Part shown: one piece after another, positions 8,470 through 36,646 of the stretch
How the letters are laid out: every line of letters starts with the position of its first letter
How positions within the stretch are numbered: the stretch's first letter is position 1
Assembly: GCA_030390025.1 (NCBI GenBank)
Contig: CM059432.1
Location: 66,776,001-66,840,000 of the forward strand
Direction: 5' to 3'
Length of the DNA stretch: 64,000 nucleotides
Origin: Squalus acanthias
Lineage: Eukaryota
Translations under genes and position numbers: made by a program
Notes under the pieces: model-generated
Told to the model about the DNA's origin: nothing
Databases searched by the model: none
Seen by the model: the letters and a program-made list of their open reading frames with translations, nothing else

Positions 8470-9471
8470 CTGGCACTAGTACTGGGGAAAGAGGGAGCTG
8501 TTTCGTCAGGACAGGCTCCACTTCAACCGGGCTGGGACAAGCGTCCTGGCAAATCAAATAACTGGGGCCGTAGATAGGGCTTTAAACTAAAAAAAAGTGG
8601 GGGTGGGGGGTGTGTTAGGGAGGGATCATGTGAGGGGGAATTTAGAAATCTAAAGAGAAAGGTCAAGGCAATAGAGTAGTGTAGCGATTTGGGTAAATAT
8701 AAGCAGAGTTTGACAGGAAGGGACAAAGATTTTAATGGTAGCAGAGAATAAGGTCAAAGCAGGGAATAGTGGTAAAAAATTTAAATTAAAGGCTCTTTAT
8801 CTAAATGCATGAAGCATTCGTAACAAGATAGACAAACTAATGGCACAAATAGAGATAAATGTGTTTGATCTAATAGCCATTACAGAGACATGGTTGCAAG
8901 GTGACCAAGGTTGGGAACTAAATGTTCCAGGGTACTTGACATTTTGAAAAGAAAGGAAGAATGCAAAATGAGGGGGAGGGGTAGCCCTGATAATAAAGGA
9001 TGACTTAAGGACAGTAGAGAGAAAGGATCTCGGCTCGGAAGATCAGGAAGTAGAATCAGTATGGGTGGAGATAAGGAATAACAAGGGGCAAAAAACATTG
9101 GTGGAAGTAGTAGGCCCCCTAATAGTAGCTATACCGTTGGACAGAATATTAATCAAGAAATAGTAGGAGATTGTAACAAAGGTAATGCAATAATTGTGGG
9201 GGACTTTAATCTTCACATGGACTGGACAAATCAAATTGGCAAAGGTAGTCTGGAGGACGAGTTCATAGAATGCATTTGGGTCAGTTTCCTGGAACAATAC
9301 ATCATGGAACCAACCAGGGAACAGGTTATTTTAGATCTTGTATTGTGTAATGAGACAGGGTTAATTAGCCATCTCATAGCAAAGGATCCTCTGGGGCAAA
9401 GTGATCATAATATGATAGAATTTCATGTTAAGTTTGACAGTGACTTGCCTAAGTCCGAAACTAGAGTCTTA

Positions 9472-10378
9472 GGGGGAAAAATTCAGTTATTTGCACCTCC
9501 CGTTAGCGCCTTAAGAGGGCGCTAATGGGACGCAAAGCAACTAGCGCCCGGGCGCGGCGATGTTTGCGCCGCTCGCGAAATTAACTAGACATTTTGCGGC
9601 GGCGCTAAACACTACCGCCACGATCTCCTGTCCGGCGGATCGTGACGTCAGTCGAGTGCGCAACGCCCCGGTAGCGCCCCGGTAGCGCCCCGGAGTGGAT
9701 ATTGAGTGGCGCCCCCTGCCTTACCGCCTGCCGCTAGCAACGACAGGTTGAGGGAAGCGTTTTGCAGTCAGGAAGGGACAGGTGGAGCGCTATTTAAAGG
9801 TGACGGCTTCCTGCCTTTTTTCGTTGGTGGCATTTTCGAACCACGCATTCTGAGAGAGAGAGAGAGAGAGAAACCTCTGGAGAGATTCAATGCTGTGTGA
9901 AGGAGTTTTGGGTACTGAGCAGCACTTTGCAGGTTCATTTTGATTTGCCCTTCCTTGTATTGATTTAGAAGCGATTGTGGGGGCTGCACTCTGAGCTCTT
10001 TCCCTGGGCCTCTCCATTGTTCTTTCCAGCAGATTTGATGTACATGTCTCTCCAGGCCGAGATTCAGGGCTGCAATGAGCAGGATGTGGATGGAAAGCAA
10101 GATCAACCCTCCCCTTTAAGAACTGGCTGGCGCCATTGTGTCTGTGTTCCATTGCTGACTGACATCACATGAGCTTCGCCAGCGCTCTGAGTTAGCGCCT
10201 CGCTCCTTGGCCTTTGTGCCTTAAGACAGATGTGTAGCGCCTGATTTAGCGCTCCAATCACCTCCAGGGGCGATAAAAGTCAAGTTTGCAGTTGGAGGCG
10301 ATAATTAGCGCCAGGCGCCAATCTTAGCGCCCGGCCAATAATTGCGCCCCAAATGGGGCGATACTGAATTTCTCCCCC
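9472..10378 (+). mobile_element. GC-rich ~0.9-kb Harbinger MITE, family A copy 1 (strand = reference orientation for this family)
   Basis: TIRs GGGGGAAAAATTCAG and CTGAATTTCTCCCCC, TSD TTA (9469-71, 10379-81). Close homologues at 35365 and 46469. Confidence 0.93.
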
Positions 10379-11923
10379 TTAATCTTAAATAAATCCAATT
10401 ACATAGGTATGAGGGGCGAGTTGGCTAAGGTAGATTGGAAAAATAGATTAAAAGGTATGGTGGTAGATAAGCAGTGGCTAGCATTTAAAGAAATATTTCA
10501 AAAATACATTCCATTGAGAAACAAAAACTCCGCGGGAAAAGTGATCCATCTGCGGCTAACTAAAAAAGTTAAGGATAGCATTAGATAGCATTAGATTGAA
10601 AGAAGAAGCTATAATGTTGCAAAGAATAGTAGTAAGCCTGAGGATTGGGAGAGTTTCAGAAACCAGCAAAGGATAACCAAAAAATTGATTAAAACGAAAA
10701 AAATAAAATATGAGAGAAAACTAGCAAGAAATATAAAAAAAGAGCTTCTACAAGTATGTAAAAAGGAAGAGAGTTGCAAAAGTAAACGTTGGTCCCTTAG
10801 ATGCTGAGACAGGAGAAATCATTATGGGGGATAAGGAAATGGCAGAATCGTTAAACAAATATTTTGTATCTGTCTTCATAGTAGAAGACACAAAAAGCAT
10901 ACAAAAAATGGTGGGGAACCAAGGGTCTAATGAGGGTGAGGTAATTAACATAATTATAATAAGTAGAGAAAAAGAACTAGAGAAACTAATGAGACTAAAA
11001 GCCAACAAATCCCCGAGACCTGATGGCCTACATCCTAGGGTTCTAAAAGAGATGGCTGCAGAAATAGCAGATGCATTGGTTTTGATCTTCCAAAATTCCC
11101 AGCAGATTGGAAGGTAGCAAATGTAACACTGCTAATCAGGAAAGGATGGAGAGAGAAAACAGGAAACTACAGGCCAGTTAGCCTGACATAAGTAGTGGGG
11201 AAAATGCTGGAATGCATTGTTAAGGAAGTGCTATCAGGGCACTTACAAAATCATAACCTGATTAGGCAGAGTCAACATGGTTTTATGAAATGTAAATCGT
11301 GTTTGACAAATTTATTAGAGTTTTTTGAGGATGTAACTAACAGGGTAGATAAAGGGGAACCAATGGATGTAGTATATTTAGATTTCCAAAAGGCATTCGA
11401 TAAGGTGCCACATAAAAGGTTATTACAAAAGCTAAGGGCTCATGGAGTTGAGGGAAATGTAATAGCATGGATAGAGGATTGGTTAACGGACAGAAAACAG
11501 AGAGTAGGGATAAACGGGTCTTTTTCAGGTTGGCTGGCTGTAACTAGTGGGAAGCCGCAAGGATCAGTGCTGGGGCCTCAGCTATTTACAATCTATATTA
11601 ATGACCTAATGAAGGACTGAATGTAATGTATCCAGGTTTGCTGACGATACAAAGCTAGGTGGGACAGTAAGCTGTGAGGAGAATACAAAGAGTCTGCAAA
11701 GGGATATAGATAGACTAAGTGAGTGGGCAGTAAGGTGGCAGATGGAGTATAATGTAGGGAAATGTGAGCTTATTCACTTTGGTAGGAAGAAGAGAAAAAC
11801 AGAATATTTTTTAAATGGTGAGAAACTTTTAAATGTTGGTGTTCATAGAGATTTGGGTGTCCTCGTGCAAGAAACACAGAAAGTTAGCATGCAGGTACAG
11901 CAAGCAATAAGGAAGGCAAATGG

Positions 11924-12353
11924 CATAGAAACATAGAATCTAGGAGCAGGAGTAGGCCATTCAGCCCGTCGAGCCTGCTCCACCATTCAATACGATCATG
12001 GCTGATCATCCAAGTCCAGTACCCTGTCCCTGCTTTAATCCCCACAGTACACATATCCCACCCTACCCCCATAACCCCACATATTTAATTCCCCCTAACA
12101 TATCCCATCCTATCCCCATAACCCCACATATTTAATCCCCCCCCTAACACTAAGGGTCAATTTATCACAGCCAAATCAACCTAACCCGCACATTTTTGGA
12201 CTGTGGGAGGAAACCGGAGCACCCGGAGGAAACCCACGCAGACACGGGGAGAATGTGCAAACTCCACACAGACAGTCACCCGAGGTCAGATTCGAACCCG
12301 GGTCCCTGGCGCTGTGAGGCACCAGTGCTAACCACTATGCCACCGTGTTGCCC
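11924..12353 (-). mobile_element. HE1-like V-SINE (tRNA head, V domain, CR1-derived tail)
   Basis: Revcomp shows A box TGGCATAGTGG, B box GGTTCGAATC, V-core gtggagtttgcacattctccccgtgtctgcgtgggtttcctccgggtgctccggtttcctcccac, and a CR1-like tail. Confidence 0.9.
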
Positions 12354-13749
12354 TTATTTGGCCTTTATTGCAAGGGGGTTGGAGTATAAGAGTAAGGAAG
12401 TCTTGCTACAATTATTCAGGGCCTTGGTGAGACCTCACCTGGAATACTGTGCACAGTTTTGGTCTCCTTATCTAAGGAAGGATATACTTGCCTTGGAGGC
12501 AGTGAAATGAAGGTTCACTTGATTGATTCCTGGGATGAGAGGGCTGTCCTATGATGAGAGATTGTGTAGAATGGGCCTATACTCTCTGGAGTTTAGAAGA
12601 ATGAGAGGTGATCTCATTGAAACATACAAGATTCTGAAGGGGATTGACAGGGTAGGTGCTGAGAGGTTGTTTCCCCTGGCTGGAGTGTCTAGAACTAGGG
12701 GGCATAGTCTCAGATAAGGGGTAGGCCATTTAAGACCGAGATGAGGAGGAATTTCTTCACTCAGAGGGTTGTGAATCTTTGGAATTTTCTGCCCCAGAGG
12801 GCTGTGGATGCTGAGTCTTTGAGTATATTCAAGACTGAGATGGATAGATTTTTGGACTCTAGGGGAATCAAGGGATATGGAGATCGGGTGGGAAAGTGGA
12901 GTTGAGGTGGATGATCAGCCATGATCTTATTGAATGGCGAAACAGGCTCGAGAGGTCGTATGGCCTACTCCTGCTCCTATTTCTTATGTTCTTATCATTA
13001 CGGCTGCTTGAGTCGTTCGGCTCCTTCTCCTTGAACTGCTGCTGCTGGCTGAGATGGCTGCACAGCCAGCAATGATGAGAATGAGATTCTGCAGTATCAA
13101 TGAACCTGCCTTTAATAACTGGAAAGAGCCTGTGGCAATGATAACTTGTGATTAGACTGCACCAGATATTGGGCAGCGCTTCGAGTTTAACACCACTGAG
13201 CTGGGCCATTAGTGCTTGATTTAATGCTCCAATCTTTTCTTTGTGCAATGAGACTGAATTTTGCTTGCAGTCTGAAGCATTAGCATCTGGTGCTAATTCT
13301 CCAACTTTTCTACTGACACTGCCCATTCCATGGCTATAACGAATTTCTAGCCCACAGTGTGTTTATTGTCTTGAAGTATAATTTACTTCAAATACCTTAC
13401 TATCTGATCCATACACAAAGGCGAGATTAGGCTTATAAGCTAACCCATTAGCACTTCAAAATTATTAAATATCAAACACAAACATAAACTCTAGTTGATA
13501 ATTTTACTAATAGCCATGTGATGTGTTGAAATCTACAGCCAAATGTGTGTAAATTGAGGGTTGGGGAGTGAAGCTTAAAATACCTTGCAACCCCCTTGAG
13601 AGATTCGGAACTATAACATTTTATTGTGAATTTGTAGATAAAAAATTCCACGGAGGATCAATTTGCAGAAAAAATGTATTTTCCACGAATAGCATTAATA
13701 CAAGCAAACCTTTAGGAACCTAGGACTAAGAGTGCAAGAAGCAACATTA

Positions 13750-14504
13750 GGCCAGAAATTGCTGGGATCATAATGATGCATTAACACTGCTCACCTTTAT
13801 TAAATCATAAAACATCCAGCAATTTGCAGAGTAAAAGAGATAAATCTTGAGTTCCAATTCTCTACAAATTGCTGGACAATTTGCCATCAGCACCTCCGCC
13901 GTTAACATCTCCAAAGCCGTTAAAAGTCCTTTCTTGCCGCGGGGCTCCCCATTGAAGTTAGTGGCGATGAGCCTGCTGGATTTATGATGTTAATACAAAT
14001 TATTCCCACCTCAGCCATTTGAGGCTGATAATTAATGCCGTGATATATGGTCCTGGCATGACACTCAACCTTGCAGGCCCATAAAGGGACCAAGGAAGTT
14101 GTGGAGTCTAACTGATAGAGATTGACGGCTATGATTAGTTAACAACTCCATTATCATTGTATCATAATACTGCCAGGATGGCAGAAGGTGAACTAGATGA
14201 ACCGTGGTCCTGCAATTTCTATGTTCCTATGAAAAAAGTGCAATGATGTACCCTCTGGATGTTCTATTTTTCCTGATCATGAAGGATGGGGCCGTTGGTT
14301 CTATACTTGATGGGTTAAGAATGTTTGTACATTTTGCTCACCTATCTTGCCATTCACTCAATACCTTTTCAAGGACATTGACATCGCTGCGCTGCTATCC
14401 TATCGATGTTCCAGCAATTTGCAGCACAAATATAATGCGATGTCAAAGATGAGCTATAAAGTCCAATGAATGTTGTTTGCCCCGAGATCTAGCAATTTCT
14501 GGCC
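13750..14504. mobile_element. Harbinger-type MITE
   Basis: Perfect 14-bp TIR GGCCAGAAATTGCT. Flanks TTA/TTT. Confidence 0.8.
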
Positions 14505-14715
14505 TTTTTTCACTCACAACATCATAAAACCTGCATGAAGGTGGAGCTTGTGCAACAGATTTTATATTACCCTTATTCTACCAGATAGCTTTGTAAATGC
14601 TGTTTAATATTTTATTTTTATGTTGTGTGCTGACAAGTTCTAGTGGCAGAGAATACTTCCCACATTAACCAATTCTTCTTTCTTACACTAAAAACCACAT
14701 GAGATCACTTAATGT

Positions 14716-15232
14716 CAACAACAACAACCACAACTTGTATTATATAGCGCCTTTAACATAGTAAAACATCTCACAGGTTCACAGGTACGTTATCAAACAA
14801 AATTTGACACCGAGCCATATAAGGAGATGTTAGGGCAGATGACCAAAAGCTTGGTCAAAGAGGTAGGTTTTAAGAAGCATCTTAAAGGAGGAAAGAGAGG
14901 TAGAGAGGCAGAGAGGTTTAGGGAGGGAATGCCAGAGCTTAGGGCCTTAGCAGCTGAAGGCACGGCTGCCAATGGTGGAGCGATTAAAATCAGGGATACT
15001 CAAGAGGCCAGAATTGGAGGAGTGCAGATATCTTGGAGGGTTGTAAGGCTGAAAGAGATTACAGAGATAGGGAGGGGTGAGGCCACAGAGGGATTTGGAA
15101 ACAAGGATGAGAATTTTAAAATTGAGGGATTTCTTAACCAGGAGCCAATGTAGGTCAGCGAGCACAGGGGTGATGGGTGAATGGGACTTGGTGCGAGTTA
15201 GGATATGGTGGCAGAGTTTTGGATGACCTCAA
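14716..15232 (-). mobile_element. L2 LINE 3' fragment
   Basis: Peptide LADLHWL...FKILILV.KSL.GLTPPYL...RAFS and tail gcgctatata...(gtt)n. Confidence 0.85.
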
Positions 15233-16898
15233 TCACCTTTCAAAATTATTAATAATTGCTAAAGGGGCTCCTCTATACTTGACACAAATTCAGGAATCTT
15301 ACTCATTGAAGCCATAAGTACGCAAGGTTTTGCACCCCAGGAGCGTCCCTTACCTGCTCAGACAGTGCTTCCTGGGCATGTCAGAAGAGATAGTTGTCTT
15401 GTGGTTATGGTACTGAACTAGCAACCTAGAGATTGCGAGTTGGCAAGTTGTGAAATTAAATTCAATAAACCTGGTAACTTGTGACCTAGAACCAGTAAAA
15501 TAATCACAAAAGCTTCCGGATTGTCATAATAACCCACTGTTTCACAAACATCCTTCAGGGAAGGGGCCTGTCACCCCTATCTGATCTTGCTCCAGGTCTC
15601 ACACTATGGCCGCAATTTCGCCTACCGAGGCGGGCTCAGTGCGGCTGAGGTAGGTGACGGGTTGGGATCCCACCCCCGGCTCCATCCCGCTCTGTGAGAA
15701 GGATTTTCCATTGATTATGCTTGTTAAGCCCGCCCTGCAAGGTTCCCGGCCAATTAAAAGGAAGCGGGTCTGATGACGTCATTTGATGACACGTCATCAG
15801 CCAGTTTCCTTAAAGGGACCATGTCCACATTCATTTTGACAGTTGTGCTGTCAGTGTTCTGCAGCATTAAGGTGTTGCAAACACTGACAAGCACCGCAGA
15901 AAGGTGCACGGCTGCACCCAAACTCTCCCATGGGCACCCAGACTCTCCCACAGCACACAGGGAGGTTCTCTTCCCTTCCAATGGGCGGAAGAGACCTCCC
16001 TGGGACACCATGCAGCCTGGTTGCACATTGCACAGGAGGGCATAAGCAGGGATGTCATCAGGAGGACCAGGCTGCAATGGCGCAAACCCTTCAATGACCT
16101 CAGTAGATCACGAAACGTTACTGCAAAGCCACACTCAACCTCATCCTGCTGTGCGACTCATCACATTCCCATCACTCTGCCTTCCCTACCCTACTCCTGC
16201 ACATCCTTACTCACACCAACTTATCTTGCACCTCCACCCATCCCTCTCTATCTACATTATCACTTCCCCACCTCACTAGCCACCCCTCACACTCACCCTC
16301 ATCCTTGTCCAATCATACCAACTAACAACACACAAGGGTAGGCACTTGGGTGTTTTCGCCAATGTTCATGTAAAGTTTCTGTTGATGTGTTGCCAAACAT
16401 TGAAAACTTTATTTTCCACACTTTGCCTTCTTGGACAGATTTGTGTGCACCTTTGGAAGTGTCTTCGTGAGTTGCAGTGAATGGTGAGACAAAACGGTAC
16501 CCCCCCGCAATTTGATGAGTGTGAAAGGAATGGTTTGGGCATTGCAGGGATGTTTTATGGTGTTGGTGTGGGGTGGTGCCAACATGGTGCCTCATGTGAC
16601 AGCCAGGGTATACAGCATAAAGTGCAGTAAATCTGACCTCCTGCCTCAGCTTCACAGACGAGGTCTAGGCACAGCGGGAAACCGGTGGGCAATCTGTCAA
16701 ATCCAAAAAGCTGTGAAAAAACCATTGAGCGTCAAGTGAAGTAAATCTGGCCATGGTACGGCCATCCCTGTCCTCCCGGGCAGCAATGTTGTCGGGTGCT
16801 GATGCCCTGTGTCCTGTGCAGCATCAGGTGATTGCGGAGCAGGTTAGTGTTCTTGTTGGTGATGCTGGTGTGCCTAGTATCGTGTCAGTGTGATACTC

Positions 16899-17310
16899 GG
16901 GGCAGCGCCAGGTGGGAGCGGCAGTCGGAGCGGGGTAGCGCCAGGCGGGAGTGGCAGTCGGAGCGGGGCAGCTCCAGGCGGGAGTGGCAGTCGGAGCAGG
17001 GTAGCGCCGGGTGGGAGCGGCAGTCGGAGCGGGGCAGCGCCAGGTGGGAGCGGCAGTCGGAGCGGGGTAGCGCCAGGCGGGAGTGGCAGTCGGAGCGGGG
17101 CAGCGCCAGGCGGGAGTGGCAGTCGGAGCGGGGCAGCGCCAGGCGGGAGTGGCAGTCGGAGCGGGGCAGCGCCAGGCGGGAGCGGCAGTCGGAGCGGGGT
17201 AGCGCCGGGTGGGAGTGGCAGTCGGAGCGGGGTAGCGCCGGCTGGAGTGGCAGTCGGAGCGGGGTAGCGCTGGGTGGGAGTGGCAGTCAGAGCGGGGCAG
17301 TGCCAGGCGG
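16899..17310 (+). repeat. 33-bp GC-rich minisatellite, about 12 copies
   Basis: Unit GGGCAGCGCCAGGYGGGAGYGGCAGTCGGAGCG. The 11-aa periodicity is visible in all overlapping ORFs. Confidence 0.95.
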
Positions 17311-18270
17311 ATGGCGGCGGATGAGCGTGAGTTCTGTTCACCGGCACTGACGAGTTCTGGGCGGGCAGTGCGGGCTCTGTGCAGCCAACGGGTTCGGGCA
17401 CCTGTCCTCCTGGAGTCCTGTTAGGCAGTCGGTGGTGGTAGGGTGGGAGAGAGAGACAGAGGTTTGTTAGTGTGTGTGCATTTTAATTTAATTTAATTTT
17501 AGCGCGTGCATTTCTTAAAAAGCTGCATTTAATATAACTTTAGTGTATGTATCTCTGCAAAAAGCTGCATTTTAACATAATATAATTTTAATATAATTTT
17601 TACGTAATATAATATAATGTAAAGTGGGGAGGGGAGCTGAGAAGGTGGGGGTGTGAGGGAGAGTGGACCCGAGGGAGTGAGGGAGGGGGTTAGTGGGAGT
17701 ATGTATGTGTGTGTGTGTTTGCTAAGCCCATCCAACAGAACCTGGGGGGCGATTTTCCCAGCCCCGAGGAGGCGGGTTTGGAGGCGGGACAGTTGGCAAA
17801 ATGGCAAAAACTGAGGGCGGGTTCGGGACCCGCCTCCAACACACCTCCGCGCAATGTTGCCGGAGGCGGGTTTGATGGGTGCAATTCGGTCCCGCCTCCA
17901 TCAGTCGGGAGAGGTAGTTAAGACCCTTAAATAGTAGTTAAGGGCCTCTATAATCCTATTTTGACAGGCCTTCGTTATTTTACCACATTTTCAGCGTGTT
18001 GCACGACCCTCCTAAACCACGCCAGCTAATCCTGGCGGGTTGACCAGTGGGTGGCCTCCTCACAGCTGCAGCTCCACCATTAAAATGGAGCTTTCATCAG
18101 GGAGCAGTTGCAAGTGGCAGAACTTTTGTTCCAAAGGTCTTTCAGCACTTTTAGCAGGCCTACCGAAGTTGGAGGTGCTGCAGTTTCTATCTCTGAACTG
18201 TGGGACCTCTTTGGAAGACCCTCTCCTGCTTGGACTGAGCGCTTCTCCAACGGAGGTATCTGCCAGCAGC

Positions 18271-19510
18271 ATGGAAACCATTTATTTCCTTTCACCATGG
18301 ACCTCAGATTCAGTTGAGGAGCAGCCACGGTAGCAGCAGAACCAGGCAACTCAACAGCAACAGCAGCAGGAGCCCCCAACCTTTTGCTCACCCACCTGAT
18401 GCTGCACAGGGCAGAAGGCGCCAGCGCATGGAAGCACGTCGCCGCAGGAGATACCCCCCTCAGGGTTTACAGACAGAGGATGAGCTACCTCAACATGACT
18501 GAGTAGCAGTGCCAAAGGAGGCTGAGACTTTCGCAAGAGGTTGTCGGAGACATCTGCGCACTGCTGCACCAACACCTGGAGCCCAGAGGAGCGGGTGGAC
18601 ACCCTTACCAGTGGCAGTCAAAGTCACCACTGCACTCAACTTTTTTGCCTCAGGCTCCTTCCAGGGATCAGCAGCAGACATCAGCGGCATCTCACAGTTG
18701 GCCGCCTACAGTTGCATCACGGAGGTTAGCAATGCCCTTTTCGCAAAGGCCCACAATTACATCCACTTCTCAAGGGATCAAGCAAGTTAACTGCGCGTTT
18801 GGTTGGCTTTGCAAATATGGCAGGCTTGCCAATGGTGCAGGGCGTCATAGACTGCACACATGTGGCTCTTAGGGCGCCCCATCACAACCCAGCTATATTT
18901 GTCAACCACAAGGGCTTCCACTCCCTCAACGTACAGCTGGTGTGTAACCACAAGAAGGAGTTCTTGCATGTTTGCGCCAAGTTCTGTGGTAGTTGCCATG
19001 ACTCTTTCATCCTGCGGAACTCTCGTGTTCCTCCGCTCTTCAATCCGCCAACCAACTTAACGGATGGCTCCTTGGTGACAAGGGCTACTCCCGGAAGAAG
19101 TGGCTAATGACGCCGATCAGGAGGCCAGCTAACGAGGCTGAAGAGTGCTACAATGCCAGCCATATTTCGACCAGGTCCATCACCGAGCAAACCATTGGCT
19201 TGCTGAAGATACGATTCCGATGCCTTGACAGATCAGGTGGAGCCCTGCAGTATTCAGCAGCCAGGGTCTCCAGAATGGTCGTGGTCTGCTGTGCACTGCA
19301 CAACATGGCACCGCATCATGGTTTGCAGCTTCCTGATGAGCAAGTGGCTCAGTTCATAGCCTCCTCAGATGAGGATGAGGATGAGGAGGAGGAGGAGCAG
19401 GAGCAGGAGGAGGACCGAGCGACGGCGTATCGACCAGCAGCAGCGGCAGCACGCGAGCACATGGCTGCCCGTGATGCAAGGGATGCACTCATCCTGGCCA
19501 GATTTGCATT
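18271..19510 (+). pseudogene. HARBI1-like DDE (DDE_Tnp_4) transposase, disrupted
   Basis: Motifs [72 protein letters not shown], then an acidic tail. Stops at 18331, 18504, 18788 plus frameshifts. Confidence 0.93.
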
Positions 19511-22354: not shown

Positions 22355-25300
22355 ATGAAGTTCGGGACCTGGAACGTCAGGACCCTCATGGATAACCCCA
22401 ACAGCGACAGACCTGAACGTCGCACCACTATCATAGCCCGGGAACTCTCAAGCTTCGACATCGACATCGCCGCCCTGAGCAAGACATGGCGGGCAGGCAA
22501 AGGCCAGCTCAAGGAACAAGGTGGCGGATACACCTTCTTCTGGAAAGGCAAACCAGAAGAGGAACGCCGTCTCCATGGGGTTGGCCATCAAAAATGAGCT
22601 AGTTTGGCGTCTTAGAGATTCCCCTTGTGGGATAAACTAATGCCTCATGACCCTTCGGCTCACTCTAACCCGGAATCAGTACGCTACGGTTGTCAGTGTG
22701 TACGTCCCAACCCTGGAAGCTACGGAAGAGGCCAAAGAGGAATTCTACTCCAGCCTTGAACAATCCCTGTCCCGAGTTCCAACGGGTGACAAGCTGATTC
22801 TCCTTGGCGATTTTAATGCCAGAGTTGGAAAGAACACAAACCTCTGGAGAGGTGTGATTGGCAGGGAAGGAGTAGGGAAAACCAACTCCAATGGAATCCT
22901 TCTCCTGACGAAATGCTTAGAACATGGTCTTGTCATAACCAACACCTTATTTCGTCAGAGAGATAAGTACAAGGCCTCATGGCAACACCCTCGCTCCAGG
23001 CATTGGCATCTGTTGGACTATGTCATCATCCGAGCGAGGGCCCACAAGGATGTTCGCATCACCCGTGCCATGACAGGAGCTGATGACTGCTGGACTGACC
23101 ACCACCTAATCAGTTCCGTTATCTCCATCAACCTAGCCTCAAAATGGCAGCGGCAACAGAAACGCTGCCGCAGAAAGATCAAGGCTGAAAGACTCAAAGA
23201 CCCTGCAAAGAAAGCCCAATTCAGTCAACGCCTCACAGCTAACCTGACGACTCCCAATGAACCGGAGCCGCAGAGTGTCCATAGTGTCTGGTCTGCCCTT
23301 AAGTCCACCATAATTAGCACCTGCGAAGAGACTCTTGGTTACTCTACCAGAAAACATCAAGACTGGTTTGATGAGAACGACCAGGAGACCAAGGAGCTAA
23401 TATATCGTAAACGTAAGGTGTTCTTGAATTAGAAACATCATCACAACTCGAGGGAAAGAAGACAGATTTACAGACAACTGAAGGCCGAGGTTTAACAAAA
23501 AACCCGTGGCCTAAAGAACAGATGGTGGGTGGAAAGAGTGCAGGAGATCCAGCAACTAGCTGATAACCATGACATGCATGGATTCTTTAGCGCAGTCAAG
23601 ACAATCTACGACCCAAGCACCCGAGGACCTATCCCGCTGAGAGCTAAGAACAGTGAGGTGCTCATAAAGGACAGAGATGCAGTCAGTGCTGGCTGGAAGG
23701 AGCACTTCGAAGATCTCCTCAATCAAGACTCTGTCTCGACATGAGTGTCCTTGACTCCATGCCACAGCATGCTATCCGCCACTATCTCAGCACAATCCCA
23801 GCCCGCATGAGGTTGAAAAGGCCCATCCGACAGCTGAAAAACAACAAGGCTTCCGGAGCAGATGAAATCCCTGCTGAAGTATTAAAGCATGGTGGAGAAG
23901 TACTCTTGGTGCGAATCCATGACCTTATCTCCCTTATCTGGAAGAAGGAGTGCATGCCAGGGGATTTCAGAAACACTGTAATCGTGACCATCTTCAAGAA
24001 AGGGGACAAGTCTGATTGCGGTAATTACAGAGGAGTTTCCCTGTTGTCTGCCACAGGGAAAGTCATTGAAAGAATCCTCCTCAATCGTCTCCTCCCAGTG
24101 GCTGAAGAGCTCCTCCCAGAGTCACAATGCGGATTCCGTCCACTAAGAGGCACAATGGACATGATTTTCACTGTGCGACAAATCCAAGAAAAATATATGG
24201 AGCAGCATCAACCTCTGTACATGACCTTTTTTGACCTTACAAAGGCCTTCGACTGTCAACCAAGAGAGATTATGGAGTGTCCTTCTCAAATTTGGCTGTC
24301 CTCAAAAATTCGTTGCCATCCTCCGTCTGCTCCACATGCAAGCCATGATCCTTACTAACGGATCCGTCACAGACCCAATACAAGTGAAGGTCGGGGTCAA
24401 GCAAGGCTGTGTCATTGCACCAACGCTCTTCTCAATCTTTCTCGCTGCAATACTTCATCTCACCCCTAACAAACTTCCCGCTGGAGTGGAGCTAATTTAT
24501 AGGACAAACGGGAAATTGTTCAATCTCCGTCGCCTTCAGTCCAGAACCAAGATTGTCCCAACCTCTGTTACTGAATTACAGTATGCAGACAACGCTTGTG
24601 TTTGTGCACACTCGGAGGCCGAACTCCAAACCATCATTGACTCCTTCACTGAAGCGTATGAGAGACTGGGCCTTACATTAAACATCTGAAAGACAAAGGT
24701 TCTTTACCAACCTGACCCTACCGCACAACACTGCCCCCGACTATCAAAATCCATGACGAGACCTTGAACAGTGTGAACCACTTTCCATACATTGGGAGCC
24801 TTCTGTCAGCGCGGGCGGACATCGATGACAAAATCTAACACCGCCTTCAGTGTGCCAGTGCAGCCTTTGGCCGCCTGAGGAAAAGAGTGTTTGAAGACCA
24901 AGACTTCAAACCCAGCACCAAGCTCATGGTCTACAGAGCAGCAGTGATACCTGCCCTCCTGTATGCTTCAGAGACATGGACAATGTACAGTAGGCACCTC
25001 AAAACACTGGACAAGTATCACCAATGCTGCCTCCGCAAAATCCTGCAAATCCATTGGCAGGATAGGCATAGCAATGTCAGTGTTCCCTCTCAGGCTAACA
25101 TCCCCAGCATTGAGGCATTGATCACGCTCAATCAGCTCCGATGGACGGGCCACATTGTCTGCATGCCTGATACAAGACTCCCGAAACAAGCGCTCTACTC
25201 TGAGCTCCGTCACGGCAAGCGATTTCCAGGAGGGCAGAGAAAACGCTTCATGGACGTCCTGAAAGCCTCCTTGAAAAAATGTAACATCCTCATCGACTCT

Positions 25301-25558
25301 TGGGAATCCCTGACCCAAGACCGCTCAAATTGGAGGAGAAGCATTCAAGAAGGCACCGAACACTTTGAGTTTCTTCATCAGGAACACACGGAGGCCGAGT
25401 ACAAACAGCAGAAGGAGTGTATGACAAACCAAGCACTCCTTCCACTCGTCCCTTCAACCACTACCTGCCCCACCTGTGGCAGAGTCTGTAGATCCCGCAT
25501 AGGGCTCATTCATCACCTTAGAACCCACAATATTGGAGTGGGAGCAAGTCATCCTTGA
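22355..25558 (+). pseudogene. RTE ORF (APE endonuclease + RT + C-terminal C2H2 finger), disrupted
   Basis: Motifs GTWNVRTL, LGDFNARVG, TDH, NYRGVSLL, ESQCGFR, DLTKAFD, GVKQGCVIAP, QYADN, CPTCGRVCRSRIGLIHHLRTH. Multiple stops and frameshifts. Confidence 0.95.
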
Positions 25559-26779
25559 CTCCGGGGGACTGCCTAAGAAGAGGAAGAGTGCCTGGTGATG
25601 TTGGTGTTGGGGCTGATCGTGGAGGGATTCTGAGGACCAAGGTGAGATTTTTTCAAGAGTACCGATGCTGCTGGAATATATGGCAGCTGAAGTTGAGATG
25701 ACAGAAACGATCTGTCAATGGTGAGAGAGCTTGCTCTGAGGAAGTGACAGTGGATAGAGAGTTTACTCCAAACACTTCCAAACTGCATAAAGCTAAAAAG
25801 TGTATTCCAAATCCTGAAGGCTGCAGCTTCTCAGATTGGAAAGTGAACAGCTGTGAAATGATAGTTTTTATACCACTTTTACAGCTGTCAACTATTCAGA
25901 GGAATGGAGAGTCATTGACAGGCCGACCTAATTACCTGACGTGATCCCCGAGCGCCGGAACCTCGTGAAAAAGCTGGTAAAATGGTAAGTACATGGTAAA
26001 ATGGCGTTCAAGTACCTTTTAACAAGCTCTTAAGTATCTGAATTGGCTCACCCGCCGCTTGGTGTCGGGTCTGTAAAGCGCAGACAGACCCGACACTTGG
26101 GAAACTGACATGGAGGCAGGTTGACAGTGGGATCCCAACCTGCAGTCAATCTTTTCGATTTTGACAGCGGACCCGCCTCCAAACCCGCCCTCTGAACGCC
26201 GGCAAAATTCCAGCCTACATGTTTAACTCTTAGTGCCCTCTGAAGTGACCCAGGAAGATGCCAATTGCAAAAATCACAACTTCAGCAATAATAAGAAAAT
26301 TTGACAGACACCACTGTGGGAACCGCAGTGGAGAAGGCCCACCTGGCCAACTAGGGATGGGTAATAAATGCAGCCTTGCCAACATCACCCACTTTCTAAG
26401 AACAAATGAAAAAAAAAGCGTTCCCGAAAAGGCTTCACAAAGAAGGTCGTCACATAGCCTTGCTGCCTCCTGGAGGTTGCCTGAAGACGATTTATACCAC
26501 AGAGAAGACTTTTCCTATAAGCACAAAGGTCACAACTACATTACATTTTTATGCCATTGGATTCTTCAAAGTCACCACTGGTGACAAATCAGTCAGTCGG
26601 GTGTCCGCAGATGTTTCCCAAGTGAGTGACAGAGGCCTTGTTTACAAGGGACCACACGTTCATCACTTTTTCTGTGGAAAGGAGATATCAGCTTGACAGG
26701 TTTACCAAGAGCGCAGGTTCGATATCTTTCAATACTAAGTGGCATACATGATGTAGCTAATTGATTTAAATTGTGAGAA

Positions 26780-28140
26780 GAACAACATGCATTTATAAAG
26801 CAGCTTTAACATAAAAAGTTCCACGGTGCTTCACAAATTGCAATATAAAAGAGAATGGCTGCCAAGCCACAGAGGAGAGATTAAGAAGACAGCACCTCCC
26901 AAACCCGCAACTTCTATGACCTAGAAGCACAAGGGCAGCAGACGCATGGGAACACACCTGCAAGTTCCCCTCCAAGTTACACACCATCCTGACTTGGAAA
27001 TATGTCGCCATTCCTTCATCGTCGCTGTGTCAAAATTCTGGAACTCCCTCCCTAACAGTACTATGAAAGTACCTTCACCACATGGGCTGCAGCGGTTCAA
27101 GAAGGTGACGCACCACCACCTTCTCAAGGGTAATTAAAGATGGACAATAAATGCTGGTCTTGCTAGTGATGCCCACATCCCAGGAATGAATAAAAATAAT
27201 TACCAAAAGCCTGCTGAAAAAGATGGGTTTTGAGTAGGCTTTTAAAGGTGTAAAGATTGGAGAGGTGGGGGGGATTTAGGGATAGATTTCTGGAGAGCAA
27301 GACCAAGGTGGCTGGAAGCTCTGTCATCAATGGTGAAGCAAAATTTGGGGGAGATGCACACAAGACCAGGTACAGGAGAGGATGTAAGACCAGAGGTTAT
27401 AGGGTGGAACAAGGTATTGGAGGGGTAGGACAGGTAGTAAAAGTAGGTTAGCAAGGATGGGGTAATGGGAGAGTGGAACTTTTTGTGGTACGGTATACAG
27501 GCAGCTGCATTTTGGAGAGATTAGAGTTTGTGGAGTGGAGGATGGGAGGCTGGCAAAGTGGACATTGAAATAATCAAGTCTAGAGGTGAGAAAAACATGG
27601 ATAAGTGTTTCATTAGTGGAGCTAGGGTAAAGGTGGCTAATGTTACATAGGTGAAAATAGGCAGTCTTGATTATGGATAGGATGTGGGGTTTGAAATTCA
27701 GCTCAGATTTGAGCAGGATGCCAAAATTTTACACTGTTTCATTCAGCCTGAATGAGTGGTTGGGGATGAGGATGGAATCAGTGGCAAGGGAGCAGAATTT
27801 GTGATGGTGGATGAAAATTATGGCTTTGGTCTTCTTGATGTTAGGTTGGCGGAAATTGTAGGTCTTCCATGGCTTAATGATGGACAGTCTGACAAAGCAG
27901 TCATATGGCCTACTCCTGCTCCTATTTCTTATGTTCTTATAGAATAAAAGTTGTTGTGAGCTCAAGAAAGCTAGAGGAGAGGTATAACTGGATGTCCTTA
28001 GCATATGTGTGGAAGCTTACCCCATGCCTGTGGATGATGTTGACTAGGCGAATGCAGATGAGGGAAAGGAAGAGGCCGAGCGTAGCCTCTGGAAGTGACA
28101 GTGGGGAGCAGGAAGATAAGTCATTGCTGGAAGTCATCCC
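26780..28140 (-). mobile_element. Old L2 remnant, interrupted by CR1 pieces
   Basis: Minus-strand IHRHGVSFHTYAKDIQLYLS (YADD region), FKSLLKTHLF, and an L2-type tail near 26790. Confidence 0.6.
26891..27196 (+). mobile_element. CR1 (family B) 3' end
   Basis: WNSLP...LQRFKK..HHHLLKGN* and its tail. Matches ~44755-45069. Confidence 0.85.
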
Positions 28141-29799
28141 GGTGGTGTCAGAAGGGCAGAAAATGGACTTTAGGGACTCAAACAGAACATTTGAGTTGGG
28201 CATGGAGCTGGAAAGTAGTGATGTGTCCAAGAACCATAGACAGGAAGTGAGGAATTAAGGACTAATTAAGAATTAAGAAGTGAGTTATGACAGCAATTTT
28301 GAAAGGGATCTGTTCTGAAGGAATGGAAACCTTTTACAGCTAGCATGGAAGGACAGAATATTTTCTGTGCTGCTGGGGCTTGCTGAGGTTGGAGAATTCT
28401 TGAATGGAAAACAGCAGACTAGGTTTGAATAGGAAAATATAAGGATAAGTGAATATTCTGGATTTTTCAGGGTAACTTTTGGGGATTAGTGATTATCTAT
28501 TTGGACCTTTATCTCAGGAGGGGTAGGGTGTACATGATCTGGTAGATTACAGAAGGGCAGGGTGGGTTGGCTCAAATCATCAGGCCGCGACTTTTGAATT
28601 TAAAGTAGGCCCCCGCCTGCCTGTAGCGGGAGCCTCAGCTGACTTGAAAGTCGGCGAAGCTGAAATGGCTCTGGGTGAGAACAGAGCAGCCTCAGGCTGG
28701 TAAGCCGATTAAGTCTAATCTTAACCCCTCCCACGCACCATTCTCACTGGGTGAGGGGGTTAAAAATGATGCCATTGTCTTTAGATTAGAGATATGAAGA
28801 TCTATAAAAGTCTCCATAGTTCTCAAACTACACATGTGCCATAAATACAGAATACCAGAAAGCATTATTCATTATTACTATAATTTATTCCATCAAACTG
28901 CATTGTAGTATTCCAGTCTTTTGCATTATTTACATTATTTGCAAAGTTTTACATAAGATGGTAATTCATAATAGCTACGAGATATTATTCCAAAGCATGG
29001 TACATTTTGAGCTTAAATTCTCAATGCGCAGTACATTGTAACAGAGTTTCAGAACTAAAGTATCAAACTGATATTTTTATTATTATTTGTAAGGAATAAT
29101 GTTCATTTTACAGCTCCTAAGGAAGGTGAATTGCATTGCATTCAAGGTCAGTGCAAATAATGAAAACGAGTCTAAGCAAAATTGTAGAGGTACAATACAA
29201 TGACATAAATCATTGTAGAACAATCAGCACATCAGATTGGCCCATTTCAAATTGTGAGAAATCTTCAAATTTAAAATACAATAATCAAACACTGACTACC
29301 AGTAATGCGTAATGATCTCAATCAGCAGCATGAAGACATGTCACTGAAAGGGGGACAAACTCTTGACATTAATTGGGGAAAGTGTAAAGAGAACGAGTCC
29401 TCATCCAGTGAACTTTTGTTGGGGTAACTACCAGACTTTATTTCAGCTGATGTCTGTAAGCTTTGGGAATCACATAGATCTCTTCATTACACAAGGAATA
29501 ATAAAACAATGATTTATACCTTTAGAAGTACCATTCTTACCTTCCTCTCTGATTAGAACACCACTATTTATTTGGCACTTCTGTTAAATTACAGAACTGC
29601 TAATCCTGGAACGTCACTGCCTTGGTCCACTGCTAGCACCCTCTTAGAAGGGAGGACAATAAAATGAGAACCTATAAATGTTACTGCTTCATACCACTGG
29701 GATTTTCTGTATTGTTTATAATATTTCATCAGTGCAGATCATTATATACAAAGTATTTAAATAAATAATTGGTTTATTTGAATTCTATGTGATAATATT

Positions 29800-30547
29800 G
29801 GCCCGGATTTTACGGGGCCTATGATGGACTATGCACAGCGTACGCCGTCGTAAGTGGCCCGCAAGTTCCAAGTTTCCGCATGCGCTGCACATGCGCGAAA
29901 ACCCGGAACTTGCGATCTGTCAAGTTTCTCCTTGACAGATTGCGCGCATCCGCTGTAAATTCACTTTTGCTGGCGCAGAGTTGAGCTATTTGCCCAACTA
30001 CTACCCAGCGAATACCCATCAAACACTTACACCTGGTAAAAGCAGGCGTAAGGCCTTCTTTTACCAGCGTAAGGGTTAAAATAAAAGTTAAAATAATTTT
30101 TTTTAAATGATTTATACATTCACTTACATTTAAAATTAGTTTAGGTTATTTTTGTTCCATTTAAAAATGTTTACATTTACTTTTCAAAAAAATTTATTTT
30201 TATTTTAAATTAATTTTGAACCTGTGATTATTTATTTTTATTTCAGTGTTGTGAAGTTGTATTTATTAGGTGATTCCTATTATGCTTATGGGGATTTCGT
30301 ACATAAATGGAATCCCCATAAGCATAATAGGAATCCCCCTTTATCATTGGTTGGCCTGGCACACGTGATCCCAGGGACGCTTGCGAACCGCTGCACCCCT
30401 CGGATGCGTGGGCCTTTATGCAGACGTACCCCCGCAGGTCCAGGACCGGAACAGTCTGAAGCTCCGGAGGCTGCAGGTAAGTACGGAGTTTTCTTGCGGT
30501 TTAGAGGCATAGGCGGGCGGCAAGCCTCCGACCGCAATTTCCAGGCC
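29800..30547. mobile_element. Harbinger-type MITE with AT-rich core and internal hairpin
   Basis: Ends GGCCCGGATTTTACGG and revcomp GGCCTGGAAATTGCGG. Flanks ATT/AAT. Confidence 0.75.
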
Positions 30548-33053
30548 AATATAAATCAAAGATATGTTTAATTAACACAAAAAGTGGAATGTTCTCACAC
30601 ATATATGAAAATAAAAAGCACTCAGTAATTAAAACAAACAATGCTGTAAACCAAAACAATATCAGCTTTAATTCAGATCCATCTTGGGGAAATTTTCAAG
30701 GCACTTCCTAGGCAAATCGCATTTCCATCTTCAATGATTTGGGTCTGCAAGAAAAAGAAAATCTACAATTTAGAAACTAAAATGCAACAGGTTCCAAACT
30801 ACAGTAAGAATTTATTCACCATTTATATATTTCTAACCGTAGTAAACTGTGCATAGATTTATTGCAACTCTTTTTCTAGCATGTAGCACCAAAACCATAC
30901 AATTTAACAGAGATCTGTGAACACGGTGCTGGTGGGATTTCGGCACCAGTGGTGTGGCCTGTTTTTTCTTTTCAGGGCTGGAATCTCACTGGGGGTGAAA
31001 TTGGACCTCGTAGCGCCCACTGTATTTTGCCAATATTTTCTGTTTTATTTCAGAACTGCTACACTTCCAGATTTTTTTCTTTTTTCCATTCCCTCCTTTT
31101 TTATTTTATTGCCTTTATCCTGATGTTGCCTGTCCCATGTCTTTTCATCATCTTCGATACTTGCCAGATCTTTTGTTCTTTTCATGTCTTTCCATCATCT
31201 CCCCATAGATCTTTCATATTATCCAACAGCTTTCTGGAAAACAGTTTGTAGGTCATTCAACCCATAAACTCCAACTCTGTGACTGGAGTACTGATGATTC
31301 TCTCCCCGCTCCTCCTATCCCTATTATTTTCCAACCTAACTGTTTTGATATGGAACTAAAGTGAGTAAATTGATTTGAGGTACAGATCAGCCATGATTGG
31401 ATTAAATGATGGTGCAGGCTTGAGGGGCAGAATGGCCGACTACCCCTACGTTTTTGTGAGAATAGAGAAGACTGTGTGATTCGATAGAAGTGTTTAAAAT
31501 TGAGAAATTGGATTGGCACTGGGAACCAGCACAGAGTGGGAAACAAGCCTGGAACGCACACCCAAAGATGAAGGCTCAAGACTCGCTGGAAATTGGGCTT
31601 CGGGCCTCATCAACATAATACCAATGAGCTGCGGATGCCAATCAGGCATCGAGATGCAGCTCACTAGTCATGACCTTCGCAAAATCTGCCAGCTCGGATG
31701 CCGAGCCAGCCCACAGGTAAGTCCTGGGGGGCCAGAGACAAACCAGAGCAGGGAGAGATTGGTTGTCAGTTCTTTCAATGACCAGAAATTCTCTCGGTTA
31801 CAAAGATACATTTGACATTTTTCTTAATTTTTAATCATTGATAAGCAGTTTGTAATCCTGTGAATAATCCTATAGAATTGAAATTGCTTTCTGTATTCTT
31901 GTTAAGGTCTACATTTGCTTGCTCAATAAACAGAGCACTGCAGACGGAAATCCTTTTTATTTTAGATCCAGAAGACATTTTAGAGCAGATTTATAACTAC
32001 AAATACAATGGTGTTTTTTCTCAGCATTATTTTTAGGGTGACATTTTCTTTTATCACAGTGATTACCGTAATACATTAACACATTTTCACAAATTGGAAA
32101 ATAATGTTTACATCATTATAGTTATGTGAGAAATCAGTAAGGTAACATCTAACTATGTAAAATCCTGGCCAGAAATTTCCTCAAAGCTGTTCCTGCAAAC
32201 ACCGCTGTAACTTTGCCAGAAGTGGAGTGGAAACCTTGTTTTCTTGCATATACTTCCTGCTACCTGTCAAAAACTAAAGAGACCCAAAGCAAATGTTCCA
32301 TTAGAAATGGGCTAAATAATAGTAAGATATTCTCTGTTAAACATTCATGAATAACTACTTGTATATTCATGGATAGCGTCTTCATAGAATTACATAGAAT
32401 ATATAGCTCAGAAACAAGCCATTCGTCCCAACTGGTTTATGCTCCACACAAGCCTCCTCCCATGCTACTTCATCTAACCCCTTCATTAAACTACACAACA
32501 GGGGGATGTTGTGTGAATGTGTTAAGCGCTCATCTGCTAAAATGGCCAATAATTTCAAACACCAGAAGATAAGGAGGGGGGTAGGCCTGATAATAAAGGA
32601 TGACGTAAGGACAGTAATGAAAAACGATCTTGGCTCAGGAAGTAGAATCCGAATGGGTGGAGATAAAAAATAACAAGGGGCAGAAAATACTGGCAAGAGT
32701 AGTTTATAGCCTCCTAACAGTAGCTATACCATTGGACAGAGGATTAATCAATAATAGGAGCTTGTAACAAAGGTAATGCAATAATCGTGGGGGACTTTAA
32801 TCTTCATATAGATTGGGCAAATCAAATTGGCAAAGATAGTCTGGAGGAGGAGTTCATGGAATGCATTCAAGACAGTTTCCTAGAACAATATGACATGGAA
32901 CCAACCAGGGAACAGACTATTTTGTATTGTAATGAGACAGAGTTAATTAGTAATCTCATAGTAAAGGATCCTCTGGGGAGGAGTGATCATAATATGATAG
33001 AATTTCACATTGAGTTTGAGAGTGAAATACTTAAATACAAAACTAGAGTCTTA

Positions 33054-33814
33054 GGGGTAAAAATTGAGTCGCGCCCCATTTGGGGCGCTAACCTCGCCGG
33101 GGCGCGACTTTTAGCACCCCGAAAAAATTAGCGGCCCCGCGCCGGAACTTCAGTGGTTGCGCCCCAAGAGGGAAGTGGGGCGCAACTGGAAGCAGCCCGC
33201 ATCCCTCTTGGGGCGCTGCGAGTGAATATCCTGGCGCTACGTGCCGCAGCGCCACGTGCTGCGGCACGTCGCGCCGTGGTATTGCAGGCCTTCCTCCCCT
33301 TCTTAAAGGGGAGGGACCCTGCGCAGCGCGAACCGGGGTCCAGCTGGGCCCCCAGGGATCGGGAGTGCCGGCAAAAGAGCCCGGCACTCAAGAGAAGTGC
33401 CGGGCTCATGGAGCGCAGCCGGCACTTCACGGTGGGGGGGCTTCACGGGGGCCGGGGGCAGGTGCTGGCAGGCGGCCAGCAACAAAAATGGCCGCCTGCC
33501 ACCTCCGCTTTAAATATCGTCGCCCCGGCCGCACGTACGCCTCCCTGAACCCGTCGGACATAGCGTCTGGCGGTAAATCAGGGGGCGCGACTGAAGATCA
33601 CGGCCGGGGCGCGAGCGGGGTGCTGCGCACGGCGATGACGTCATCGCCGGCGGCGCAGCGCCACAGGACGCTACCGGCTGCCGCCGCCGCTAACCTCCCA
33701 CTAAATTTTTCGGGAGGCGTGGGCGGCGCTGCGCTCGGGCGTTAGCTGCTTTACGCCCCATTAGCGCCCTCTTAAGGCGCTAACGGGAGGCGCAAGCAGC
33801 TGAATTTTTCCCCC
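33054..33814 (-). mobile_element. GC-rich Harbinger MITE, family A-related but with a different interior, in opposite orientation
   Basis: Ends GGGGTAAAAATTGAG and CTGAATTTTTCCCCC, TSD TTA (33051-53, 33815-17). Revcomp of the right end matches the left end of the 9472 element. Confidence 0.92.
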
Positions 33815-35364
33815 TTAAACTTAAATAAAGCCAATTACATAGGTATGAGGGGTGAGTTGGCTAAGGTAGATTGGGAAATTAGATTAAAAGGTATGATGGT
33901 AGATAAGCAGTAGCAAACATTTAAAGAAATATTCTAAAATTCTCACAGAATATACATTCCATTGAGAAATAAAAACTCCACGGGAAAAACTATCCATTCT
34001 TGACCAACTAAAGAAGTTAAGGATAGTCTTAGATTAAAAGAGGCTTATAATGTTGCAAAGAATAGTAGTAAGCCTGAGGATTGGGAGAGCTTTAGAAACC
34101 AGCAAAGGATGACCAAAAAATTGATTAAAAAGGAGAAAATAGAATATGTGAGTAAATTAGCAAGAAATATAAAATGAGATTGTAAGAGCTTCTACAAGTA
34201 TGTAAAAAGGAAGAGAGTAGAGAAAATACACAATGGTCCCTTAGAGGCTGAGAAAGATGAAAATATAATGGGGAATAAGGAAATGCAGAGACTTTAAACA
34301 AATATTTTGTATCTGGCTTCACAGTAGAATACACCAAAAATAGTGGGGAACCAAGGGGCTAATGACAATGAGGGACTTAAAGTAATTAAAATCAGTTGAG
34401 AAAAATACTTGAGAAACTAATGGGACTAAAAGCTGACAAATCTCCTGGACCTGATGACCTATGTCCTAGGGTTCTAAAAGAGGTGGCAAAAGAGATCGTG
34501 GATGCATTGGTTGTGATATTCCAAAATTCCCTAGATTCTAGAACGGTCCCAGCGGATTGGAAGAAAGCAAATGTAAGCCCGCTATTCAAGAAAGGAGGGA
34601 GAGAGAAAACAGGGAACTACAGGCCAGTTAGCCTGACATCAGTCATCGGGAAAATGCTGGAATCCATTATGAAGGAAGTGGTAACAGGGCACTTAGAAAA
34701 TCGTAATATGATTATGCAGAGTCAACATGGTTTTATGAAAGGGAAATTGTGTTTGACAAATTTATTCGTTTTTTGAGGATGACTTAGATGAAAGGACCGA
34801 GTGTAATGTATCCAAGTTTCCTGACAATACAAAGCTAGGTGAGAAAGTAAGCTGTGAGGAGGACACAAAGAGCCTGCAAAGAGATAGACAGGTTAAGTGA
34901 GTGGGCAATAAGGTGGCAGATGGAGTAAAATGTGGGGAAATGTGAGGTTATTCACATTGGGAGGAAGAATAGAAAAACAGAAAACTTTTTAAATGGTGAG
35001 AAATTATTACATGTTGGTGTTCAGAAAGATTTAGGTGTCCTCGTACAGAAAACACAGAGTTAGCATGCAGATACAGCAAGCAATTAGGAAGGCCTTTATT
35101 GCAACGGGGTGGCAGTACAAGAGTAAGGAAGTCTTGCTACAATCATACAGGACTTTGGTGAGACCACACCTGGAGTACTGTGCACAGTTTTGGTCTCCTT
35201 ATCTGAGGAAGCATATACAGTACTTGCCTTAAAGGCAGTGCAACAAAGGTTCACAAGATTGATACCTGAGGTGAGAGGGTTGTCCTATGAGGAGAGATTG
35301 AGTAGATTGGGCCTATACACTCTGGAGTTTAGAAGAATGAGAGATGATCTCATTGAAACATATA

Positions 35365-36244: not shown

Positions 36245-36646
36245 ATAAGATTCTGAGGGGGATTGACAGGATAGATGCTGAGAGATTGTTTCCCCTGGCT
36301 GGAGAGTCTAGAACTAGGGGGCATCGTCTCAGGATAAGGGATCGGCCATTTAAGACTGAGACGAGGAAGAATTTCTTCACTCAGAGGGTTGTGAACCTTT
36401 GAAATTCTCTACCCCCAAAGTGCTGTGGATGCTCAGTCATTGAGTATAGATAGATAGATTTTTGGACTCTAGGGGGATCAAAGGATATGGAGATTTGGCT
36501 GGAAAGTAGAGTTGAGGTCGAAGATCAGTCATGATCTTATTGAATGGCGGAGCATGCACGAGGGGCCATATGGCCTACTCCTGTTCCTAATTCTTATGTT
36601 CTTATAATTTTTTTGCCATTTAGCAAAATTACATCAGAATTGCAAT

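Follow-up and report, generated by a model that had tools for sequence, protein, structure and literature searches.

Introduction

A target preference that reaches beyond the duplicated bases is an established principle among Harbinger transposons. In the available parts of PMC2836001 it is described as a known trait of the PIF/Harbinger superfamily, covering 9 bp in plants and 15 bp in vertebrates, and the portion of PMC3016246 at hand gives the consensus target of zebrafish Harbinger3_DR as the 15-bp palindrome AAACACCWGGTCTTT (AAACAC-CWG-GTCTTT). According to the accessible text of PMC2836001 and PMC9179366, the Harbinger Myb protein attaches to the ends of the element and to the transposase, and both proteins are required; which of them reads the target arms and core is left open in that part of PMC2836001. 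Harbingers are recorded as absent from the shark genomes surveyed in the accessible sections of PMC4482050 and PMC9179366. Here we analyze a Harbinger family found in a 64,000-nucleotide stretch of the Squalus acanthias genome (GCA_030390025.1, contig CM059432.1, positions 66,776,001 to 66,840,000; "the window"), where two elements sit at the same base of two copies of the long interspersed nuclear element (LINE) CR1. The two are independent insertions. The family favors a 17-19 bp palindrome, and CR1 is likely hit again and again because a few of its positions match that palindrome and these exist in thousands of copies.

Results

Two Harbinger Elements Occupy the Same Base of Two CR1 Copies

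Four members of one family with GGGG...CCCC ends lie in the window, at 9472-10378, 33054-33814, 35365-36244, and 46469-47373. The first-pass annotation of the window had named three of them and overlooked the last. The features, in window coordinates, are as follows (ORF, open reading frame).

8756..12902, + strand: CR1 LINE copy 1, decayed ORF2 (codons ~50-995 of a natural reference; 3' end to ~13000; tblastn with the intact ORF2 of locus L249)
9472..10378, + strand: non-autonomous Harbinger element of family A, 907 bp (TTA duplication, 9469-9471 and 10379-10381)
9460..9471, + strand: target site at CR1 codon ~288, left arm and duplication (right arm 10382-10390; motif score 10.4 bits)
32645..36503, + strand: CR1 LINE copy 2, decayed ORF2 (codons ~148-992; hosts two insertions; tblastn with L249 ORF2)
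33054..33814, - strand: non-autonomous Harbinger element of sister family B, 761 bp (CR1 codon ~288; TTA duplication; site score 9.6 bits)
35365..36244, - strand: family A element at CR1 codon ~903 (ATA duplication; in CR1 copy 2)
46469..47373, + strand: family A element, not in CR1 ORF2 (TTT duplication; site score 5.7 bits)

The elements at 9472-10378 and 33054-33814 both lie within CTAGAGTC-TTA-A(T/A)CTTAAATAAA, with TTA on either side and in opposite orientation, exactly as the annotation had described them. Their shared insertion base is codon ~288 of CR1 ORF2, just past APE, a domain covering residues 66-270 in an intact natural ORF2. The third member is also inside CR1, as had been stated, and occupies the same CR1 copy as the second. 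Pfam places APE (PF03372/PF14529) and reverse transcriptase (PF00078; 552-768) domains on the natural 995-aa host ORF2. Octamer repeat tails are found 3' of the ORF end; an 8-bp repeat 3' tail is a mark of CR1. Codon ~903 is a separate recurrent site, with three sampled ORF2 insertions at codons 903-904 and one more with mismatched flanks.

The two elements at codon ~288 have only their ends in common (72% identity over the first ~290 nt plus 35 nt at the other end), and their CR1 hosts are 87.6% identical around the site. For a tree of this site, 62 CR1 rows (32 occupied, 30 empty) were collected; after removal of 27 with short flanks and 2 on long branches, 14 occupied and 19 empty copies remained. 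Grouping the two window hosts together was rejected (approximately unbiased test, p-AU 1.6e-73), and so was a single clade of all occupied hosts (p-AU 0.0003), whose highest pairwise identity is 95.2%. The 32 inserted elements are split evenly in orientation (15 versus 16, 1 unassigned), form 26 clusters at 95% identity, and measure 580-907 bp. Transposase-coding sequence is present in four occupied loci, one of which is 57% identical and has different ends; one element at this base looks unrelated. Weighing against independence, occupied hosts cluster on the tree: 6 changes are counted versus a shuffled mean of 10.8, and 1-2 of 500 shuffles are as low. Occupied hosts are also slightly more diverged (88.7% identity versus 90.6% among empties); this might reflect greater age of these hosts and the selection of empties by exact match. 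We conclude that the two elements in the window arrived at one CR1 base by independent insertion, in agreement with the first-pass annotation.

Insertion at Codon ~288 Is Precise to a Single Base

Genome-wide, the codon ~288 site followed by GGGG, i.e., occupied, was found 91 times (8 for the reversed-pattern control), and the empty site 1,868 times (13 for its control), which gives an occupancy of ~4% (4.6% raw). An average TTA/TAA is occupied at ~6e-5, a figure based on TTA/TAA making up 3.7% of positions and 18/127 duplications; by hand calculation, codon ~288 stands ~600x higher. A genome-wide pattern search revealed no element ends 0-30 bp downstream of the intact empty site. In an upstream-anchor search spanning 30 bp, which at the same time shows gapped patterns to work, 59/62 matches fell on the codon ~288 base, two lay 6-8 nt upstream, and one was not CR1-like. 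The almost empty neighboring bases, together with 22 close pairs among 32 sampled ORF2 hits (4.6 expected under a flat WWW null; hits at codon ~63 were left out of this test), rule out flat use of TWA or WWW sites, and the uneven spread over AT-rich CR1 sites foreseen in the annotation is borne out.

Between seven and eight occupied codon ~288 sites (7/91; 8/59 in the upstream-anchor set) lie together at G000:C12:64.76-65.01 Mb with two repeated flank types. This cluster is likely a segmental duplication array. The window pair is 23.6 kb apart, and a second close pair is found at G000:C9:49662728/49713464. Two such pairs outside the C12 cluster compare with ~0.1 expected under even spread (hand estimate) and may reflect regional density.

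The Family Favors an Extended Palindrome

The target was derived from a sample of the earliest pattern matches along contig C1 (to ~24 Mb), comprising 90 loci plus 108/210 further listed places; copies with intact ends are favored in it, and it does not represent a random draw from the whole genome. An exact 3-bp duplication flanks 127/200 elements, the remainder having no far end in the locus or mismatched flanks. The logo from 125 unique sites (200 right ends, 127 exact duplications) reads T W A R A S W C - W W W - G W S T Y T W A. It is symmetric about the duplication, and its strongest positions are -4 (A 87%), -1 (C 75%), +1 (G 70%), and +4 (T 85%). The duplications themselves (n = 127) are TAT/ATA (49), TTA/TAA (18), AAA/TTT (16), CAA/TTG (12), ATG/CAT (8), and others (24). 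A strict TWA duplication was rejected, as TTA/TAA accounts for just 18/127 (14%); CWG was seen in 2/127. Collecting flanks and building a logo had been suggested in the first-pass annotation as a check. It yields this symmetric palindrome, and the strong CR1 enrichment is found at the 3' octamer tail, where it tracks the motif score.

Long Elements Encode Harbinger Proteins

Element ends GGGGKARAAATT occur 122,438 times in the 3.71 Gb genome (control, 3,667), corresponding to ~59,000 copies, and intact 24-letter right ends occur 36,278 times. Terminal inverted repeats (TIRs) are ~16 bp long, GGGG..CCCC. Thirteen of the 127 elements that have an exact duplication are long (3.5-4.3 kb), two of them sharing flanks. 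The long elements encode a DDE_Tnp_4 transposase (PF13359, E 7.8e-40 in L262 and 9.4e-35 in L213) with 35 residues between the second D and E in transposase P0001. Counted from its first Met, the ORF in L262 is 383 aa long, and frames of 360-386 aa are open in 4/13 long elements. Convergent to it lies a Myb_DNA-bind_5 gene (PF13873, E 3.1e-9 in L262 and 7.1e-9 in L263), whose exons are resolved in part. In one Pfam scan of long elements, 9/11 frames gave no match, and the Myb exon was absent from the matches of that scan and was located afterwards. With DDE_Tnp_4, the Myb gene, TIRs, a 3-bp duplication, and a palindromic target preference, the family is PIF/Harbinger (PHIS superfamily), as the annotation had called it. 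Zator is another superfamily with a 3-bp duplication; assignments of this kind were set aside given the DDE_Tnp_4 and Myb genes.

Non-coding derivatives of 0.7-0.9 kb exist beside the 4.1-4.3 kb coding elements. Family A matches the latter over their first ~519 bp and last ~388 bp at 72-91% identity and is their internal-deletion derivative. Family B has the ends alone in common with long elements (70-73%) and is a sister lineage. Several full-length elements (L097, L107-L109, L115, L125, L130, L146, L156, L157, L165, L171, L176) have flanks without a common duplication or from different repeats; copies may have recombined, or the duplication may have decayed.

Other related features were seen in the window. 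A decayed Harbinger-type transposase remnant at 18456-19310 is 47-63% identical to the transposase of the family. A further GC-rich element with GGGCTGGATTTTG inverted ends at 39919-40685 is likely a second Harbinger-type non-autonomous family. The host of the element at 46469-47373 (46386-46468 and 47374-47502) is a repeat with further copies at 49083-49177 and 62675-62876.

Most Insertions Lie Away from Codon ~288

Twenty random 10-kb loci served as background and contained 14.9% CR1 ORF2 (bootstrap 10.7-19.1%) and 2.9% CR1 3' end. Automatic masks divided 184 distinct sampled sites into 37 ORF2, 31 3' end, and 116 other. After hand correction of ~20 rows, the tally was 41 ORF2 (codon ~63 hits included), 41 tail/3' end (a few of these rows not being octamer tails), 5 doubtful tails, and 97 other. 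ORF2 is thus enriched ~1.5x (41/184 versus 14.9%), and the 97/184 insertions outside CR1 show the same motif. Recurrent ORF2 sites in the sample are codons ~63, 471-473, 733, 820-822, 840, and 903; codon 288 was hit in 0/184.

Two positions are used heavily. An 11-mer of the CR1 octamer tail is followed by an element end 2,702 times and is empty 12,642 times (~16,000 when corrected for the last pattern letter), i.e., ~14% occupied, and it takes up 4.5% of all copies. The CR1 ORF end lies 60-125 nt upstream in 18/30 occupied tail loci. At codon ~63, where the APE domain starts, elements occupy 12 of the first 100 sites listed (~12%; 6,858 sites in total), and 3 of these 12 are likely one duplicated event. 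By comparison, the exact end 12-mer, counted by eye, is present in 23/30 fetched occupied codon ~288 loci, which translates to ~70 of 59,000 copies, or ~0.1%. The family thus follows no strict one-target habit, with ~0.1% of copies at codon ~288, 4.5% at the best tail 11-mer, and more than half of sampled insertions outside CR1. The first-pass annotation had cast the LINE as the recurrent landing site of the family. This part of its proposal is not supported: codon ~288 is a minor hotspot of a motif-guided Harbinger, not a LINE-homing system.

Elements stacked ~8 bp apart in one CR1 tail were seen in L302, L304, L317, L318, and L330 (around 1500), and also in L102, L117, L207, and L250. In 5/30 tail loci other GC-rich element ends lie just upstream, three of them belonging to another family, whose ends are of the GGGCT(C/G)GATTTTG type. 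Transfer of the element by CR1 retrotransposition from the tail is not supported, as tail loci differ in element ends, lengths, and downstream flanks. One CR1 subfamily is very young, with an open ORF2 of 995 aa and 98-99% protein identity between copies (L249 1701-4685 on the - strand, L277, L190, L293); its tail unit is the lowest-scoring one for the Harbinger motif. The idea that younger CR1 subfamilies have motif-escaping tails was rejected, because nearest-copy identity shows no trend (GACTCTAT 96%, GATTCTAT 89%, GTTTCTAT 97%, GTTCTTAT 94%).

Hotspots in CR1 Follow the Motif Score

A scoring matrix was trained on 97 sites that are neither CR1 nor tail. It gave codon ~288 a score of 9.6 bits, within the top 0.02% of random positions and rank 1-3 of 1,000-2,800 ORF2 positions in 29/30 empty copies (the remaining one fell beyond the ORF mask). 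Its frequent top picks in ORF2 include codons 63, 104, 453, 471, and 734, all of which were hit in the sample. Tail units scored 11.3 (GACTCTAT), 9.2 (GATTCTAT), 6.7 (GTTTCTAT), and 4.2 bits (GTTCTTAT), and the respective tails were occupied in 24/30 (partly selected), 6/37, 0/29, and 0/43 cases, so that none of 72 poorly matching CR1 tails carried an element. High-scoring sites (>=9 bits) outside CR1 see heavy use as well, at about 1.2-1.5% per site. These results, together with the symmetric logo and its matching arms, uphold the strong sequence-specific targeting of Harbinger3_DR type that the annotation had proposed.

Several observations weigh against the motif as the whole explanation. 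The matrix under-predicts occupancy, giving 1.0% for codon ~288 (observed, ~4%) and 3.3% for the tail (observed, ~14%). At >=9 bits, estimated occupancy is 1.2-1.5% outside CR1, 2.7-4.2% in ORF2, and 9-21% in tails (background counts are small), tails being 8-14x above non-CR1 sites. At >=7 bits, the odds ratio of ORF2 to non-CR1 sites is 3.2 (p 0.002) with the random background and 1.5 (p 0.21) with a local one. Close pairs in ORF2 number 22 versus a matrix mean of 11 (p 0.03), and the high-scoring codons 340, 412, and 772 received no sampled hit. We conclude that the motif accounts for most of the 600-fold effect and that an excess of 1.5-3x remains in ORF2, and more in tails. Candidate causes of this leftover are a blunt matrix derived from decayed sites, regional co-occurrence, retention, and true steering.

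Discussion

By analogy with known members of the superfamily, the Myb protein would bind the element ends and the transposase, and the DDE transposase would cut and join. The complex would read both target arms symmetrically, whichever protein does the reading, and the even orientation split would follow from this. CR1 would supply thousands of copies of a few good sites. After insertion into a tail, the leftover octamer units would still be targets, and elements would therefore stack 8 bp apart.

Part of the CR1 excess may arise after insertion. It is possible, if less than an even chance, that insertion is guided by the motif only and that the excess comes from retention of elements that are harmless in dead repeats plus regional co-accumulation, a reading that adds to the palindrome preference. 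Indeed, CR1 ORF2 makes up 23.8% of 10-kb loci around elements versus 14.9% of random loci, and the odds ratio falls from 3.2 to 1.5 with the local background; however, neither process can give single-base precision or the difference between tail types.

True steering to CR1 beyond the local motif, by a longer CR1 sequence, phased octamers, or CR1-associated chromatin or protein, would make the LINE a genuine landing pad. We regard this as quite improbable. The concentration of 82/184 sampled insertions (~45%) in CR1 ORF2 or 3' ends versus ~18% background, the residual excess at matched score, strongest in tails, and the stacked elements in 5/30 tail loci speak for it. Yet more than half of the insertions carry the same motif outside CR1, poorly matching tails are empty, bases adjoining the hotspot are almost empty, and the ORF2 excess is not significant with the local background. 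A narrower version, in which CR1 3' tails form a self-renewing landing pad, with phased octamers preferred over an isolated motif, fresh target left behind, and several Harbinger families stacking, appears unlikely. If true, it would mean that a DNA transposon settles at the priming end of the commonest LINE of this genome and may disable that end.

Descent from one ancestral insertion that was multiplied through segmental duplication, or through an occupied CR1 retrotransposing, and rearranged afterwards is extremely improbable: the C12 cluster with its repeated flank types looks duplicated and occupied hosts are somewhat clustered on the tree, but for the window pair and the sampled set it is refuted by both orientations, the variety of element clusters and lengths, the coding loci, the unrelated-looking element, the ceiling of 95.2% on identity between occupied hosts, and the rejection of one clade, the last being the outcome of the phylogeny check put forward in the first-pass annotation.

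With the palindrome preference as the favored explanation, an extended target motif is enough by itself to make a few bases of an abundant LINE into hotspots that are 4-14% occupied. A transposon-in-LINE insertion shared at one of these bases is therefore an unsafe marker of common descent. Since the arms match Harbinger3_DR, the core differs, and open transposase frames exist, the family also offers a direct route to finding which protein reads the arms and the core.

Comparison with Known Systems

A literature search by title and start of abstract, with most subscription journals, Repbase Reports, and supplements outside its coverage, returned nothing on Harbinger hotspots in CR1; the supplements of PMC4482050 may list related families. 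The comparisons below draw on the available parts of the cited papers. Harbinger3_DR and Harbinger3N_DR of zebrafish resemble the present family in having two genes, non-autonomous partners, a 3-bp duplication, and a palindromic preference (PMC3016246, PMC2836001). The Harbinger3_DR consensus fits the arms found here (ARASWC-...-GWSTYT) at 12/12 positions. Unlike its CWG core, the duplication here is AT-rich and relaxed, CWG being nearly absent (2/127). The present family also differs in a preference that reaches ~8 bp on each side, in its ~59,000 copies, and in its hotspots in CR1.

PIF and mPing (Tourist MITEs, for miniature inverted-repeat transposable elements, of maize and rice) are likewise MITEs moved by a two-protein system with a preference beyond the duplication; in contrast to their 9 bp around TAA/TTA, the preference here covers 17-19 bp, and TTA/TAA makes up 14% of duplications (PMC2836001). 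NuwaI and NuwaII (PHIS) share GGG termini, DDE and Myb/SANT genes, and a length of ~4.2-4.5 kb with the coding elements described here (PMC4482050). NuwaII (C-TNA-G) has, like our family, C before and G after the duplication (here C 75% and G 70% of 125 sites). Unlike in NuwaI, CWG duplications are rare here (2/127), and unlike in NuwaII, TNA-type duplications are a minority (PMC4482050). The family fits none of the duplication-defined groups given in the accessible text of PMC4482050, being neither TWA nor CWG and only partly C-TNA-G. Recurrent insertion into defined parts of repeats, as seen here, is described for MuTAnT in TA microsatellites (PMC4486113) and for nested plant long terminal repeat (LTR) retrotransposons (PMC6911290). 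Both belong to other superfamilies, and for the present Harbinger family a motif trained on sites away from the host repeat predicts the nesting.

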